Positions 31,362-39,167 of a stretch of 39,723 nucleotides of DNA are shown here, in pieces. Under the pieces are notes generated by a model. It had not been told where the DNA came from. It saw nothing but the letters and a program-made list of their open reading frames with translations, and did no database searches. The DNA comes from Myxococcota bacterium (lineage in GTDB: Bacteria; Myxococcota_A; Bradymonadia; UBA7976; UBA1532): positions 1-39,723 of the forward strand of contig JAKLJY010000075.1 in the NCBI GenBank assembly GCA_023150895.1, in the 5' to 3' direction. Numbering within the stretch: position 1 is the stretch's first letter; every line of letters begins with the position of its first letter. A program made the position numbers and the translations under genes.

Positions 31362-32339
31362 ATGCGGTCGACCCCGATGATCAGAAGCCCTTTCCACGCC
31401 GCGGCGAGCACCGTCGCGCTGTTCTCGGCCCTCGCAGGACTCGGTGCATGCAGCTCCGACGACGACGGAGCGGGGAACATCACCGCCTTCGGGCAGCAGT
31501 ACAGCGAGATCGTGTGCAGCGGGTTCGCCAGTTGTTGCGCGGACACGGGGCAGCCCGTGGACAAGGGCCAGTGTCAGCAGCTCTTCAACTACCAGATCGA
31601 CGAGTTCGAAGCCGGTATCAACAGCGGCAAGTTCACCTTCGACGCGTCGGCGGCCAATGAGTGCCTCGCGGCCGTGCGGGCCATGTCGAACCTGTGCACG
31701 GAAGAGCCCCCCACGGTCTGCGACAAGGTCACGAAGGGCACCGTCGGGGCCAACGAGCGCTGCGACGACGACGACGAATGCGCGGTTCCGCCCGGCGGAC
31801 AGGCCTCCTGTAACTACAGCGGCGAGGCCGAGTACGGCCGCTGCGAACAGACCGTGCGGGGCAAGGTGGGCGACGACTGCCAGCAAACGTGCGAGGACCT
31901 CGGCGGCGGGGGCTGGTCGTGCGGCGGCAGCGGTGAGGACCCCGTCGACGGGATCTCCACGGCCTGTTACCGCAACGACAACCTCGTCTGCGATTACGAG
32001 ACGAAGAAGTGCGTCGCCCTCGGCGCGGCCGGCGCCGACTGTGGCAACGATGACGACTGCGCGCAGGGGCTCTACTGCCCGTTCGAGACCAACAAGTGTA
32101 CGGCCCTCGGTGCCGCGGGCGCGGCCTGCACGTCGAACAGCGCCTGCGAGAGCGACTACTGCGATCCGTCGGACGTGTGCGCCCCGCCGCTCGCGCTCGG
32201 GGCGGCCTGTGACGCGAACGCGGAGCGCGACCCCTGCGGGGCGGACGGGCGCTGTTCCGAAGAGGGCAAGTGCGAGGAAGGCGGCCTCTTGGGCGGGGGC
32301 GGTGGCACTGCGCTCGTCTGCGGTTTCCTGGGCGGGTGA
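31362..32339 (+). CDS. Cysteine-rich repeat lipoprotein
   Basis: Lipobox in MRSTPMIRSPFHAAASTVALFSALAGLGAC. Multiple repeats of the C-x-ALGAAGAxC-x5-C-x4-C type, Asp/Gly/Cys-rich, indicating an extracellular disulfide-rich domain. Confidence 0.6.
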   Translation: MRSTPMIRSPFHAAASTVALFSALAGLGACSSDDDGAGNITAFGQQYSEIVCSGFASCCADTGQPVDKGQCQQLFNYQIDEFEAGINSGKFTFDASAANECLAAVRAMSNLCTEEPPTVCDKVTKGTVGANERCDDDDECAVPPGGQASCNYSGEAEYGRCEQTVRGKVGDDCQQTCEDLGGGGWSCGGSGEDPVDGISTACYRNDNLVCDYETKKCVALGAAGADCGNDDDCAQGLYCPFETNKCTALGAAGAACTSNSACESDYCDPSDVCAPPLALGAACDANAERDPCGADGRCSEEGKCEEGGLLGGGGGTALVCGFLGG

Positions 32340-32363
32340 CCCGCGGGCCCGGCCGTCGCGGCG

Positions 32364-33593
32364 TCAGCGCGGCGGCAGCGACGTGCGGCGCAGGCCGGCG
32401 GCGGCGACCAGGAAGACGGCGATGCCGCCGATGCCCAGGCCCGCCTCGGTGTAGAGCATGCCGTCGGCGCCCTTCACGTCGGCGACGTAGCCGAGCAACA
32501 ACCCCACCCACCAGATGGGGAAGTTCGAGAGGGTGGCGTAGAGGGTGTATTTCGTGGCCGCCGAGCCGGGGCCGATGGCGTCGAGCACGACGGCGGTGAA
32601 GGCGGCGTAGCTCAGCCCGACACCCAAGGAATACACCACGTTGCCCCCGACGTAGGTGGCGGGGGTCATGGGCAGCGCGGCCATGCCGCCGGCGACGATG
32701 GCCAGCGAGAGACCCATCGCGGCGTAGACGGCGCGCGGGGGGAAACGCATGCAGAGCCAACCGCCCATGAAGCACCCGGCGCCGTTGATGAGGCCGGCCA
32801 TGACACCCTGAACGAGCGCGACCTCGTGCTCGCCGGCGCCCCACTTCTCGGCGACGGCGGACTGCGTCAACACACCCTGCGCGGCGCCGGTGCCGATGGG
32901 CAGGAAACACAGGATGGCGCTCGCGAGGCCGCCCTGCGTGCGGGTCATGCCTCGGATGTTCGCGAAGACCTGCCCGATGGCCGCCTTCGGGCCCTGCCCG
33001 TGCCCCTCGGCCGGGAGGTCCGGCAGCGCGCGCAGGGCGAGGCAGCAGGCCGCGAAGAGCACCGCGAAGATGAGCCCGGTCATCCAGGCTTCGGGCAGGG
33101 CGTTGAGCAGCAGGAGCCCGACGCCGCCGCCGATGCCGGCCCCGCCGAGGTTGCCGGCCTGGAACCACGCGCTGACGCGGCCGATTTGATCAACGGGCGT
33201 GACCTGCGCCATCAGGGCCTCGACGGCCATGCCCACCATCGAGTTGACGAGGTTGGCCGCGGCGATGACCGCCAGCAGGAGCGGCAGCGTCTCCGGGCCG
33301 AGGGGGATGCTGGCGATGGCCGCGACGCCCACCGACGAGCCGAGCGCCGAGATGTAATACCAGCGCTTGGGCGTCAGCGTGGTGTCCACCAGGGGCGCCC
33401 AGATCCACTTCAGCCAGTTCATCATCAGGCCGGCGGCGCCCAAAAAAGCGCTCTCGGTGATGGACAGGCCGTGGCGCGTGCCCAGGAAGGTGAGCGCGAC
33501 CGTGACGAAACCGCCGAGGGCGCCGAACGGGAAGTACAGGATGGTGTAGACGACCGGGTGGGGGACCCGGTGCGGGTGCGCGGTCGCCGTCAC
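32364..33593 (-). CDS. MFS transporter, AmpG/PAT-family-like (muropeptide or lysophospholipid permease type)
   Basis: Multiple TM segments. MNWLKWIWAPLVD matches the AmpG/LplT loop-1 signature (LKFLWxPLxD). The GTG start overlaps the stop of the upstream vault-protein gene (GTGA). Length is 409 aa, confirmed by counting. Confidence 0.7.
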   Translation of the reverse strand: MTATAHPHRVPHPVVYTILYFPFGALGGFVTVALTFLGTRHGLSITESAFLGAAGLMMNWLKWIWAPLVDTTLTPKRWYYISALGSSVGVAAIASIPLGPETLPLLLAVIAAANLVNSMVGMAVEALMAQVTPVDQIGRVSAWFQAGNLGGAGIGGGVGLLLLNALPEAWMTGLIFAVLFAACCLALRALPDLPAEGHGQGPKAAIGQVFANIRGMTRTQGGLASAILCFLPIGTGAAQGVLTQSAVAEKWGAGEHEVALVQGVMAGLINGAGCFMGGWLCMRFPPRAVYAAMGLSLAIVAGGMAALPMTPATYVGGNVVYSLGVGLSYAAFTAVVLDAIGPGSAATKYTLYATLSNFPIWWVGLLLGYVADVKGADGMLYTEAGLGIGGIAVFLVAAAGLRRTSLPPR

Positions 33594-36115
33594 GTCGCGT
33601 CCGACTTCGGGCCGGTGAGGGCCTTGCCGTCGAGGACCCGCCCGAGGATGTTCGAGAGCGGCGTGCCCTCGAAGACCTTGGCGATGACGTCGGTGAGGTT
33701 CTTGCCGCCGATGAACTGCTGCACGCTCATGGCCTCGGCGATCTTGACGAGGACCTCGTGGTTGGAGAGCGCGAGCAGCGCCTCGCTGAAGCCGCCCTGG
33801 GCCGCCTCGAAGCGGGCGACGGTGGCCTCGACCTCGGCCTTGAGCGCGGCGAGGCGCAGCGCCTGCTCGCCCTCGCTGATCTCGTAGCGGATGGCCGCCG
33901 CGGTGCGATCCCGCTCGAGGCCGGCGGTGTGTTCGACCCCGACCGCCTCGGCCCGCGCCTCGGCGACCTTCTTCTGTTCGACGAGGGCCTTGATCTCGCC
34001 GATGAGGTGGGCGAGCTGCACGCGCTGCTTGTTCTCGGCCTCCTCGACGCCGAGCTCGGACAAGCGCCGCGACGTCTGTGCTTTCGCCTCCGCCGTCTGA
34101 CGATTGATGTCCTCCTGTCGCTGCGTGGCCTCGAGCGCGCGATTCGCCCGCTGCAGCGCGATGTTGGACTCGACGGCCTCGTGCTGCGCGAGATTGAGCA
34201 GGCGCGCGATGTTCTCGTCGCCGATGGTCACGCCGAGGACCTCGACGTCCGTGACGTGCATGCCGTTCTCCTTGAACTTCATGCCCGTCCGCCCGCCGCC
34301 CTCGGCAGGCACGCCGAGGATGGTGTCGCGGATGACGTCGACGCTCTGTCGGTAGAACTGATCGACGCTGATGCGTTTGACGACGCCCTTGAGCACCGAG
34401 CGGACGTGGTCGCAGAGGAACTTGACGTAGTTCTCGACCTCGAACCACCGCATGGGATCGTCGGTGAAGTTCACGCGCAGCGAGTATTCGAGGCGCACCC
34501 GCACGTGATCGGCCGTCTCGACCTCGCAGATGTCCGAGACCTTGTTGTTGAGCACGCGCAGGAACACCGTGCGCAGCAGTTTGTCGGTGCTCTTCGGTTT
34601 GCCCGTCGAGAGTTCGATGACCTCGAAGGACTCGTCGTAGGCGAGCAGCAGGTTCTTCGGGCCGACCTCGACGCGGCGGTTGCCCTTCTTGTCGACGATC
34701 ATCAGCGCGTAGCCCACCCACACGCTGATGGCGGGCACGCCCTCGAACTTGGTGTTGAAGACCAGCGTGCGGGGCTGGTTGAACTGACTCACGCGGTCGA
34801 CGGTGTCACCGGCGCTCGCGGCGCGCTCCCGGGCGGCGCCGACCCCGGCGGCGACGGCTTGTGCGGCGGGCACGGCGGCCGCCTTGGCGCCGGGGGCCTG
34901 CGCGCGCTGGTAGTCCCCCTCGGAGATGACGCCCGCCCGAGCCCCCGGGGTCTCGTTGGCCATCGCGCGCAGCGCGCGGTTGTAGGCGAGGGCCTCCTCG
35001 TTGCCGGGGTACCACGTCGCACACTCGCGATCCGACAGGATGCGGCGCACGATGATCTCGTCGACCGGGTTGGGCAGGAGCATCAGCGGGCCGGCCGCCA
35101 TGCGGATCTCGCCCGACTTCCGGTTCATGACATAGCGCGCCTCACCGGCGGGAATGGCCACGGCGAAGTGTTTCTCGCGCCCGTCGTACCGCACGAGGGA
35201 GTGTTCTTCGCGCGGGAAGTAGATGGCCGTCTCTTTGCCCGTGATGAAGAGCTCGTCGCCCTCGGAGTACGCCCGCCCCTGCTCGTCTTTGTAGGGGGCG
35301 ATGATCTTGATGTGCAGGCCCTGAATCTCGTTGAGCTCCAGGGCTTTGAACTTGCGGTGGCCTTCTTTGACGATGAACGTCTCGGTCGGCTCGGGGAAGA
35401 CCACCTGCGGCCCGCGCTCGTAGCGCTTCTTGCCGTTCTGATCCACCAGGATGCAGTACTCGAGGCGCTCGAGCGTCAGCGCATCGCGGACGTAGTGGTT
35501 GTTTTCGTCCGTGACGACCCCCACACCCGTCGGCGGAATGTAAAACGAGACGTCCGTCCCCTTGATGATGAGCAGTTTACCGACGGTGAGGTCCGCCGGG
35601 ACGCGTGAGACCGGGGCCTCGGCCGCGCCCTCGGTGGCCGGCTTGACGACCGCCGTCGCCCAGTTCTTGCGTGCCTCTTCCTCGTTGTAGACCCGCACGA
35701 GCAGGTACTGATTCGAGCGCAGGTGGTGCCCCTGCACCAGCTTGACGATCTGCCCCGGCCACAGCGCGAACGCGCACGGCCCCGTGATGTTGATCTTGCG
35801 GCCGACCTCGAGATCCGGCCCGGGGTGAACGCCGCCCGGCGTGGGGTGGTCGTTGCGGACCGACGGGTTCTTGAGCACCAGGTAGAAGCCCTCGGGCGCG
35901 ATGGCGATCTGCTGCACCGCCTCTTCGAGGCCGCAGGGCTCGAAGCGTTTGCTCGTCGGGTTGAAGACGACCGGCCGCTCCTGCGCGGTGGGGTTGATGA
36001 CCGTCGGGCCGGTGTAGGTCTTCACCACGCCCTTCGTCACGTCCTGCATGTACGCGTATTCGCTGGGGGCCAGCACCAGATCTCGTTTGCTCACGCGGTC
36101 GTCCACGGTCGGCAC
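33590..36115 (-). CDS. Major vault protein (MVP) homologue
   Basis: Collinear with eukaryotic MVP: the N-terminal MVP-repeat start (LVLAPSEYAYMQDVTKGVVKTYTGP against human [26 protein letters not shown]); repeated β-rich modules; shoulder-domain blocks RVEVGPKNLLLAYDESFEVIELSTGKPKS (human [30 protein letters not shown]) and EVETADHVRVRLEYSLRVNFTDDP (human [27 protein letters not shown]); and an SPFH-like/coiled-coil cap region (…NIALQRANRALEATQRQEDINRQTAEAKA…). Confidence 0.75.
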   Translation of the reverse strand: MPTVDDRVSKRDLVLAPSEYAYMQDVTKGVVKTYTGPTVINPTAQERPVVFNPTSKRFEPCGLEEAVQQIAIAPEGFYLVLKNPSVRNDHPTPGGVHPGPDLEVGRKINITGPCAFALWPGQIVKLVQGHHLRSNQYLLVRVYNEEEARKNWATAVVKPATEGAAEAPVSRVPADLTVGKLLIIKGTDVSFYIPPTGVGVVTDENNHYVRDALTLERLEYCILVDQNGKKRYERGPQVVFPEPTETFIVKEGHRKFKALELNEIQGLHIKIIAPYKDEQGRAYSEGDELFITGKETAIYFPREEHSLVRYDGREKHFAVAIPAGEARYVMNRKSGEIRMAAGPLMLLPNPVDEIIVRRILSDRECATWYPGNEEALAYNRALRAMANETPGARAGVISEGDYQRAQAPGAKAAAVPAAQAVAAGVGAARERAASAGDTVDRVSQFNQPRTLVFNTKFEGVPAISVWVGYALMIVDKKGNRRVEVGPKNLLLAYDESFEVIELSTGKPKSTDKLLRTVFLRVLNNKVSDICEVETADHVRVRLEYSLRVNFTDDPMRWFEVENYVKFLCDHVRSVLKGVVKRISVDQFYRQSVDVIRDTILGVPAEGGGRTGMKFKENGMHVTDVEVLGVTIGDENIARLLNLAQHEAVESNIALQRANRALEATQRQEDINRQTAEAKAQTSRRLSELGVEEAENKQRVQLAHLIGEIKALVEQKKVAEARAEAVGVEHTAGLERDRTAAAIRYEISEGEQALRLAALKAEVEATVARFEAAQGGFSEALLALSNHEVLVKIAEAMSVQQFIGGKNLTDVIAKVFEGTPLSNILGRVLDGKALTGPKSDAT

Positions 36116-36239
36116 TCCTTCGTTTCAGGGCAATCGCCGCAACCATCGGCGGTTTGAGCGGACGGGGCAAGGCCCGGCGCGCGCGTCGGACACGGGGCGA
36201 CTTGCGACCGGGGGGCCGGCCCGGGCATCAGACCGGATC

Positions 36240-37133
36240 GTGAGCTTTTCCGAACTCCGCGCTTTCCTCCTCGTCGCCGAGAAGGGTTCCTTCCTGGCGG
36301 CGGCCATCGCCTCGGGCGAGTCGCGCACGACGCTGCGCCGGCACGTCGACGCGCTCGAGGCCCGGGCGGGGGTGCCGCTCTTGCACCGCGACCGCCGGGG
36401 GGTCATCCCCACCGAGGCGGGCACGCGCCTGCTGGCGTCGGGCCGGGTCATGGAGCGCGAGTTCACGGACCTGCTGACGTCGATTCGCGAGATGGGGCGC
36501 CTGCCCTCCGGCACCGTGCGGGTGCTGCTGCCCGTCGGGCTGCCGATGACCGGACTTTCGGCGATTCAAGCCTTGCTGAAGGCCTCGTTCCCGCAATTGC
36601 GCTTCCGGTTGACGTTCTACGACGGTCCGTTGGGCCCCACGCCGCCCGAGGCCGACGTCGTGGCGTGGTTCGGCGAGACGCCGCCGCCGGGCGCCTGGGA
36701 GGCCCGGGTCGTCACGCGGGCGCGGCAACGCCTGCTGGCCGCGCCGGCCTATCTCGAGATGCACGGCACGCCGACCGACGTCGAGAGCCTGTGCCGGCAC
36801 GAGCTGGCCGTCTTCGCGGCGCCGGACGATCCCGCCGGACGGCTGGTCACCCGCACGGGGCAGCGCGTCCCCAAGGAGCCGCTGGTGGTGACGAGCAACG
36901 TCGACTTTCTGCACGCGACGGCCCGCAGCGGCGCCGCCATCGCCTGGGTGCCCGACGGCGACGTGCCGCCCCCGCCCGGTGAGCCGCCGCTCGTGCCCGT
37001 GCTCGAGGCGCTCTTCGGGCGGGACGTGCCCGTCTCGGTGGGCGTGCCGGCGGCCCTCGTCGAACTGCCCAAGGTGCGGGTCTTTCTGGAGAACCTGACG
37101 GCCATCCGCGACGCGGGCCTCAGCGCGCGCTGA
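36240..37133 (+). CDS. LysR-family transcriptional regulator
   Basis: GTG start gives VSFSELRAFLLVAEKGSFLAAAIASGESRTTLRRHVDALEARAGVPLLHRDRRGVIPTEAG, an N-terminal LysR wHTH. A C-terminal substrate-binding-like domain follows. It is divergent from the MVP–MFS operon. Confidence 0.8.
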   Translation: MSFSELRAFLLVAEKGSFLAAAIASGESRTTLRRHVDALEARAGVPLLHRDRRGVIPTEAGTRLLASGRVMEREFTDLLTSIREMGRLPSGTVRVLLPVGLPMTGLSAIQALLKASFPQLRFRLTFYDGPLGPTPPEADVVAWFGETPPPGAWEARVVTRARQRLLAAPAYLEMHGTPTDVESLCRHELAVFAAPDDPAGRLVTRTGQRVPKEPLVVTSNVDFLHATARSGAAIAWVPDGDVPPPPGEPPLVPVLEALFGRDVPVSVGVPAALVELPKVRVFLENLTAIRDAGLSAR

Positions 37134-37148
37134 CGCCGCGGCCCGTTC

Positions 37149-39167
37149 CTACGGGATCGCGTCCTCGATGTTCGAATAGAGACCGTAGATGCGCCCGCAG
37201 ACGGGGTGCTGGATGAACGCGCGGGACCGGTAGCGGTAACGCCCGCCGTTGACCCGCGGCGCGTCGAGGTGGCTGCGCGCCTCGGCCGGCAAATCACCGC
37301 TGATGTTGTCCCAGGCCGCGGCGTCGCCGGCATCCTCGCCGGGGTCGAGCCGGGCCACGCGGAAGCCGGAGACCGCCGGCCCCTGATACTCCCAGGTCAC
37401 CCGCACGGGCTGTGGCTCGGGGGTGTTTTCGCCCTGTCGCGCGGCGACCAGATTGCGGGGGGCCGGGGGGCCTGCGGGGCACTCGTTGCCGCCCCCGGCG
37501 CAGTCCCCGCCGTCGAGCCCGCAGGCCGCGACGTTGCAGTCTTCGTCGCACTCGCCATCGCCGATCCAGTCGGCGGGGCAGCCGGGCGCACACTCCGCGC
37601 CGGGCTCGCCGCCCGCGCAGTCCCCCCCGTCGAAGGCGCAGGCCGCGACGTTGCACGCGTCGTCGCAGACGCTGTCACCGGGCCAGTCCGCGGGGCAGCC
37701 GGGGGCGCACTCCTCGCCCGGGTTGACCTCGGCGCAGTCCCCCGCGTCGAAGCCGCAGGGGCCCACGTTGCAGACATCGTCGCAGGTGCCGTCGCCGAGC
37801 CACTCCACGGCGCAATCCGGCGCGCAGACGGCCGGGCCGCCCTCACAATCGCCCGCGTCGAACCCACAGGCGGCCACCCGGCAGGCGACGTCGCAGGTGC
37901 CGTCGCCAATCCACTCGGCGGGGCAGCCCGGGGCACAGTCGGGGCCCGGCACCACGCCCGCGCAGTCGCCGTCGTCGAAACCGCACGCCTCGACGTCGCA
38001 GGTCGCATCGCAGGTGCCATCGCCGCGCCACTCCGGGAAGCAGTTGGGCGCACACTGTTCGACACCCGGATCCGGGCCGGGTCCGGCCTCGCAGTCCCCC
38101 CCGTCGAAGCCGCAGGCCTCAACGTTGCAGTCGACGTCGCAGGTGCCGTCGCCGCGCCACTCGGCGTAACAGCCGGGGGCGCAGAGCGCGGGATCCGGCC
38201 CCGGTCCGGGACCCCCCGCGCAGTCGCCGTCGTCGAAACCGCAGGCCTCGACGTCACAGTCGGCGTCGCAGGTGCCGTCCCCGCGCCACTCGGCGAGGCA
38301 GCCCGCGGCGCAGAGACCGGGATCGGGCCCGGGGCCCCCGGCGCAGTCGCCGTCGTCGTGATTGCAGGCCGCCACGTCGCAGTCGACGTCGCAGGTGCCG
38401 TCGCCGCGCCATTCGGCGAGGCAACCGGGCGAGCAGACCTCGTCGGGGTCCACCCCGGGGCCGGCGTCGGGGGCGTCGGCGCAGTCGCCGTCGTCGTGAT
38501 CGCAAGCAGCGGTGTTGCAATCGACGTCGCAAGTGCCATCGCCCCGGAACGCCGCCAGACAGCCCGGCGCGCAGAGTTGGCCGGGGTCGAAGCCGGGGCC
38601 GGCGTCGGGCACGTCGGCGCAGTCACCGTCGTCGTGATTGCAGGCCTCGACGTTGCAGTCGACGTCGCAGGTGCCGTCGCCGCGGAAGGCCGCCAGACAG
38701 CCCGGCGCGCACGCCTGATCGGGATCGAGGCCCGGGCCGGCGTCGGGCACGTCGGCGCAGTCGCCGTCGTCGTGATTGCAGGCCGCGACGTTGCAGTCGA
38801 CGTCGCAGGTGCCGTCGCCGCGGAAGGCCGCCAGGCACCCCCGCGCACAGGCGTCGGGGTCGGGCCCGGGCGCGCCACCCGTGCCGCCCGATGCGTTGCC
38901 GCCCGATGCGTTGCCGCCCGTCGCCCCGCCGGTGCCGCCGGTTGCAACTCCGCCGGTGCCGCCGGTTGCGACTCCGCCGGTGCCGCCCGTGAGACCCCCG
39001 CCGGTGCCGCCCGCGACCCCGCCGCTGCCGGTGCCGGCGTCGTCTCCCGTCGAGGCCGCGTCGGTATCGGTGTTTTCGCCGCAGCCGGCGGCCGTCAGGG
39101 TCAGGAGCAACGCCAGGCGGGCCGCCCGACCGATCGTCGTGCCCAGCGGGCTTCGTTCGAGCGCCAT
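37149..39167 (-). CDS. Lipoprotein with about 14 tandem Lin-12/Notch (LNR) repeats, an N-terminal Gly/Thr-rich linker and a C-terminal FN3-like domain
   Basis: Start MALERSPLGTTIGRAARLALLLTLTAAGC. The linker is GTGGGLTGGTGGVATGG…. Repeats such as CAPGCLAAFRGDGTCDVDCNVAACNHDDGDCA match the LNR consensus C-x3-C-x5-GDG-x-CD-x2-CN-x3-C-x2-D(G/D)GDC. The C-terminus PAPRNLVAARQGE…VRVTWEY is FN3-like. Confidence 0.75.
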   Translation of the reverse strand: MALERSPLGTTIGRAARLALLLTLTAAGCGENTDTDAASTGDDAGTGSGGVAGGTGGGLTGGTGGVATGGTGGVATGGTGGATGGNASGGNASGGTGGAPGPDPDACARGCLAAFRGDGTCDVDCNVAACNHDDGDCADVPDAGPGLDPDQACAPGCLAAFRGDGTCDVDCNVEACNHDDGDCADVPDAGPGFDPGQLCAPGCLAAFRGDGTCDVDCNTAACDHDDGDCADAPDAGPGVDPDEVCSPGCLAEWRGDGTCDVDCDVAACNHDDGDCAGGPGPDPGLCAAGCLAEWRGDGTCDADCDVEACGFDDGDCAGGPGPGPDPALCAPGCYAEWRGDGTCDVDCNVEACGFDGGDCEAGPGPDPGVEQCAPNCFPEWRGDGTCDATCDVEACGFDDGDCAGVVPGPDCAPGCPAEWIGDGTCDVACRVAACGFDAGDCEGGPAVCAPDCAVEWLGDGTCDDVCNVGPCGFDAGDCAEVNPGEECAPGCPADWPGDSVCDDACNVAACAFDGGDCAGGEPGAECAPGCPADWIGDGECDEDCNVAACGLDGGDCAGGGNECPAGPPAPRNLVAARQGENTPEPQPVRVTWEYQGPAVSGFRVARLDPGEDAGDAAAWDNISGDLPAEARSHLDAPRVNGGRYRYRSRAFIQHPVCGRIYGLYSNIEDAIP
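37440..38870. repeat. Tandem roughly 96–102-bp coding repeats (LNR modules) within the 37149..39167 gene
   Basis: Reiterated 'cagtc(g/c)ccgtcgtcgtgattgcaggcc(g/t)cgacgt(t/c)gcagtcgacgtcgcaggtgccgtcgccgcg…' units are visible by eye across about 1.4 kb. Confidence 0.7.

Follow-up and report, generated by a model that had tools for sequence, protein, structure and literature searches.

The locus studied here raises the question of whether a bacterium carries a genuine major vault protein (MVP) and, if so, whether that protein builds a vault-like particle or serves the permease and regulator genes on either side of it. The question touches on two open problems, namely the building of vault particles by prokaryotes and the purpose of vaults. 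In the window, the 39,723-nucleotide stretch of DNA analysed, the first-pass annotation had reported an 841-aa open reading frame at 33590..36115 on the reverse strand, which we confirm, ending in a TGA stop codon (33592..33590). Of the two GTG codons that could serve as its start, at 36115 and at 36106, the second is the more probable: it has a GGAG 8 nt upstream, the sister genome reads GAA at the position of the first, and the databases contain a 99%-identical protein of 838 aa. These observations favour a gene at 33590..36106 (reverse strand) encoding 838 aa, with a 133-bp gap to the divergent neighbour; its identification draws on the reading frame, Pfam and phmmer searches of the PDB. 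Residue numbers below follow the 841-aa form.

The product is a true homologue of MVP, neither truncated nor disrupted, in which N-terminal β-repeats of MVP type are followed by the shoulder domain and an extended cap helix. Pfam detected MVP_shoulder (PF11978) at 95.5 bits (cut-off 25), with residues 523–633 covering positions 2–118 of the 118-position profile, and Vault_3 (PF17795) at 39.1 bits (cut-off 28.8), the latter representing the repeat that adjoins the shoulder at the R9 position; NCBIfam has no matching model. The best PDB sequence match was human/rat MVP (phmmer, E 5e-21), and in this alignment both shoulder motif blocks cited in the first-pass annotation proved real: VETADHVRVRLEY aligns with human MVP IETADHARLQLQLAY, and RRVEVGPKN..FEVIELSTGKPK with human MVP RVVFGPEL..FTVLSLSAGRPK. 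The same annotation had described an alignment with eukaryotic MVP along the whole length, which holds by structure (see below) but not by sequence, since no Pfam Vault-repeat family is found in residues 1–475. Searched alone, these residues matched no Pfam family at E≤10, including Vault, Vault_2 and Vault_4, and comparison of the N-terminal half with MVP gave weak stretches only (residues 215–348 to MVP 275–409, i-Evalue 0.8–2.2). Internal repeat signal was likewise weak when repeat-sized alignment slices were compared with hhalign (206–262 versus 316–362, P 74%; 206–262 versus 455–520, P 54%).

A monomer AF2 model, computed from an alignment of 102 sequences, among them representatives of the 50%-identity clusters, indicates how this N-terminal region is folded; it replaced a first run on 31 sequences at 64–82% identity, in which mean pLDDT was 48.8 and the N-terminal half was unusable. 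In the model, residues 10–360 (35036..36088; all segments given here lie on the reverse strand) form about 6–7 small, all-β repeats of MVP type, with an inserted helix at 145–154 and a loop at about 160–178, so that the N-terminal array is predicted to have the MVP-repeat fold. Residues 361–459 (34739..35035), where alignments A1 and A3 have an undefined consensus, comprise a helical module (362–406) followed by a poorly conserved, Ala/Gly-rich linker (about 414–444) that appears disordered, with pLDDT <50. A further repeat beside the shoulder, at residues 460–519 (34559..34738), aligns with R9 of human MVP (466–519) and is modelled at pLDDT of about 97. It leads into the shoulder domain, which has an SPFH-like fold (residues 520–633; 34217..34558), and then into one long helix (residues 634–772; 33800..34216) with a high content of Ala, Glu, Leu and Arg, the predicted equivalent of the MVP cap-helix domain. 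The alternative that the protein carries a generic SPFH/band-7 domain only is contradicted by the match of its N-terminal repeats to the MVP-repeat fold; Pfam assigns MVP_shoulder instead of Band_7 (PF01145), the likeness to SPFH proteins lying in the shoulder fold.

The profile alignment continues through the cap helix to query residue 794, opposite human MVP 826. The C-terminal tail (residues 773–841; 33593..33799) is conserved and contains short helices modelled at pLDDT 34–61; in the profile alignment it pairs with human MVP 777–826, and it may correspond to the cap ring. Many columns between residues 768 and 820 are invariant among Myxococcota homologues, in which the first 50 residues are strongly conserved as well. 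The protein has no membrane anchor: its sequence contains no TM-like segment and no hydrophobic or amphipathic anchor.

MVP-type genes are common in Myxococcota and have already been described, and the earlier characterisation of bacterial homologues as rare is not sustained by the databases, in which more than 4,500 proteins match and a search with just the N-terminal half gives 853 clusters at 50% identity. Publications of 2013 and 2019 reported bacterial MVPs from Myxococcales, Cytophagales and Oscillatoriales (PMC3762200; bioRxiv 10.1101/872010), all in silico, including Corallococcus coralloides H8MNI3, Plesiocystis pacifica A6FXM1/A6FXE2, Enhygromyxa salina A0A0C2D5V5 and proteins of Saprospira and Microscilla (Daly 2013, PMC3762200; Sokolskyi 2019, bioRxiv 10.1101/872010); our search of the literature found no experimental characterisation of a bacterial MVP. 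Many homologues of the present protein are labelled ‘major vault protein’ by JGI. MVP homologues are also carried by huge phages, and a plasmid search with the protein gave no match.

On the downstream side, the MVP stop codon overlaps the GTG start (33593..33591) of a 409-aa MFS permease gene (32364..33593, reverse strand) in a GTGA junction at 33590..33593 on the reverse strand, as the first-pass annotation had noted, and the identical junction is present in sister genome L059. This overlap implies co-transcription and probable translational coupling of the two genes. The permease has at least 10 hydrophobic segments, matches Pfam MFS_1 at 65.5 bits (cut-off 33.4) and is 100% identical to an NCBI entry named ‘MFS transporter [Myxococcota bacterium]’. 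It had been called AmpG-like; AmpG (TIGR00901) shares the MFS fold and is indeed its best NCBIfam match, and JGI labels many of its homologues ‘PAT family ... AmpG’, but a score of 33.7 bits against a family cut-off of 350 argues that it is not an AmpG equivalog. By sequence it is best described as a generic MFS permease, PAT/AmpG-like at the superfamily level only.

On the other side, a LysR-type regulator of 297 aa (36240..37133, forward strand, start codon GTG at 36240; Pfam HTH_1 53.6 bits, LysR_substrate 42.3 bits) is transcribed divergently, at the 124 bp from 36115 originally reported, or 133 bp from the preferred start. NCBIfam gave sub-threshold LysR-family matches only, and an orthologue of 87% identity occupies the same position in sister genome L007. 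The gene beyond it encodes 11 LNR/Notch repeats, an ‘eukaryote-like’ domain. The divergent intergenic region (36107..36239), partly conserved in L007, presumably holds both promoters, and a dyad in it, CGCCG-N7-CGGCG at 36135..36151, is a candidate operator. A consensus scan of 32000–37300 found no promoter of sigma-70 type and terminators at chance level, and an inverted-repeat search of the intergenic region returned GC-rich micro-palindromes only.

Whether this arrangement matters to the protein can be judged from its conservation. Among 76 loci, MFS and LysR genes stand beside MVP in the window and in the sister loci L007/L059 only, so that the pairing is confined to the present species and its closest sequenced relative. 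About 60 further MVP loci whose flanks are long enough to judge lack it, even some at 81% MVP identity; elsewhere, the genes flanking MVP fall into about 80 Pfam families on each side, and among 65 downstream and 68 upstream neighbours scanned with Pfam no MFS or LysR gene recurred. Conversely, the closest orthologues of the permease (74% and 66% identity) adjoin neither MVP nor LysR, and its family is widespread by itself (1,631 matches at E≤1e-10), as is that of MVP. An ancestral, divergent LysR–MFS pair into which MVP was inserted was considered and dropped, because these closest permease orthologues have no adjacent LysR gene. The regulated two-gene, membrane-associated unit proposed in the first-pass annotation is therefore not a conserved one, its MFS pairing recurring in one sister genome among the 76 loci. 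More generally, no neighbour of bacterial MVP genes is conserved across the family in the loci sampled; one Myxococcota clade has a 2H phosphoesterase-like gene next to MVP, and a Ser/Thr kinase gene is another clade-specific neighbour. The LysR–MVP–MFS operon is most likely a recent, lineage-specific arrangement outside the core function of the protein. Nevertheless, a local functional link to the permease is possible, since the GTGA junction and the LysR gene are kept in two genomes (~88% nucleotide identity) that share the block while their flanks differ on both sides.

Taken together, our analysis suggests, with a probability that we put at about 0.6, that the gene encodes a soluble, cytoplasmic protein of the bacterial MVP branch and that copies of this protein assemble into a dome or cage resembling a vault, the MFS/LysR operon being specific to the lineage. 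By homology with MVP and SPFH cages, the long C-terminal helix and the SPFH-like shoulder would drive side-by-side oligomerisation into a closed cap, beneath which the N-terminal β-repeat chain would form the wall of the dome, and two such domes, joined through their N-terminal rims, could make up a vault-like shell that might hold a cargo. In this lineage alone, the gene between LysR and MFS would be co-transcribed with the permease, probably translationally coupled to it, and possibly controlled by LysR. Against this reading stand N-terminal repeats that Pfam does not see, a candidate cap-ring region of low confidence in the monomer model, the seven altered residues of the human nucleotide pocket described below, and a window in which neither vault RNA nor, among the proteins scanned, a TEP1- or PARP4-like partner was found.

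The same architecture could instead give an open half-vault, a single dome or ring seated by its N-terminal rim on some large structure such as the inner membrane, with no part for the permease; we regard this as unlikely. All SPFH relatives among the PDB matches are single domes sealed by membrane, the wall is interrupted by a disordered 30-residue linker, and the bacterial N-terminal repeats have diverged in sequence from eukaryotic R1–R7, possibly with loss of the waist contact; however, MVP has no hydrophobic or amphipathic anchor to hold such a rim, and its conserved first 50 residues fit a two-half waist contact equally well. That absence of an anchor weighs also on the view that MVP and the permease form a LysR-regulated functional unit in which MVP works at the membrane, either covering the permease as a dome or serving as a flotillin/SPFH-like scaffold. 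The GTGA overlap, the block common to the sister genome despite differing flanks, and the SPFH fold of the shoulder speak for such a unit, as membrane proteins are found inside SPFH cages of known structure (aquaporin 1 in that of stomatin, 9zd2; FtsH in that of HflK/C) and eukaryotic vaults have been seen membrane-attached in situ (PMC13100048). Because the pairing is missing from some 60 further MVP loci and from the closest permease orthologues, and both families are widespread independently, we consider it less likely still. Its most specific version, a vault-like dome recruited in this lineage to the inner membrane, capping the co-translated PAT-family permease on the cytoplasmic side under LysR control, like SPFH cages on FtsH or aquaporin, and forming a secluded chamber that receives what the permease imports, for instance cell-wall fragments of prey, is a long shot; if true, a soluble MVP would have returned to the ancestral mode of action of SPFH proteins.

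A role that needs no cage, in which the protein sequesters nucleotides or metabolites, for example as the nucleotide-depleting anti-phage factor proposed by Sokolskyi 2019, seems improbable to us. It would accord with the binding of NAD+, ADP and ADP-ribose by a pocket in the human MVP shoulder (PMC12280208), with NMP binding predicted in silico for the Enhygromyxa and Saprospira homologues (bioRxiv 10.1101/872010), with the 2H phosphoesterase-like neighbour in one clade and with the homologues in huge phages. Yet all seven residues named for the human site that fall in the aligned region differ (R507, P508, H509, R511, L517, P565 and K573 are S, T, D, L, R, E and D in the bacterial protein; PMC12280208), PADLOC defence models match neither MVP nor MFS nor LysR, scans of neighbouring genes show no conserved defence genes at MVP loci, and the conserved long cap helix and repeat wall favour an architectural role. 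A decaying relic of eukaryote-to-bacterium gene transfer is effectively refuted, even though MVP is best known from eukaryotes and ‘eukaryote-like’ domains lie nearby, among them the LNR/Notch repeats beyond LysR. The reading frame is intact (838–841 aa), GC3 is 0.93, as in neighbouring host genes, full-length homologues at 64–82% identity occur in hundreds of Myxococcota MAGs with numerous invariant columns, and identity to eukaryotic MVP is just about 17–22%; on these grounds the pseudogene reading was dropped, as the first-pass annotation had anticipated.

The present gene is thus one further well-supported member of the bacterial MVP family, and its confident model places the whole eukaryotic MVP architecture in the Myxococcota branch, including a repeat wall that sequence models miss. 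As no neighbour recurs throughout the family in the sampled loci, operon context will not point to cargo or function, with the possible exception of the clade-specific partners, the 2H-phosphoesterase-like gene and the Ser/Thr kinase. As the source is an uncultured MAG, cultured carriers (Corallococcus, Plesiocystis, Enhygromyxa, Haliangium) offer better experimental entry points.

Compared with the bacterial MVPs already described, the protein shares family, host phylum, a length of about 830–860 aa and the MVP_shoulder plus Vault_3 architecture; a term search of those reports found no mention of operons or gene neighbourhoods, whereas the present copy has its lineage-specific LysR–MVP–MFS arrangement. 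Eukaryotic MVP (rat, human, rabbit; PDB 4v60, 7pkz, 9bw5, 9z4w) is its best PDB match in both sequence and structure and, at the low identity given above, has the same modules in the same order at nearly equal residue numbers. The differences are that the bacterial counterparts of R1–R7 are invisible to Pfam Vault models, that the helical module and disordered Ala/Gly linker (361–459) stand at the position of R8, and that the seven aligned residues of the human NAD+/ADP-ribose pocket are all different. No Rfam family, vault RNA included, reached its gathering score in the window, and Pfam found no TROVE, PARP or WD40 domain, as in TEP1- or PARP4-like partners, among the window proteins scanned. 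Relative to SPFH/Band-7 cages (HflK/C, flotillin, prohibitin, erlin, stomatin, QmcA), the bacterial MVP dispenses with the N-terminal membrane anchor, is assigned by Pfam to MVP_shoulder and not Band_7, and adds a β-repeat wall of roughly 460 residues before its SPFH-like domain.

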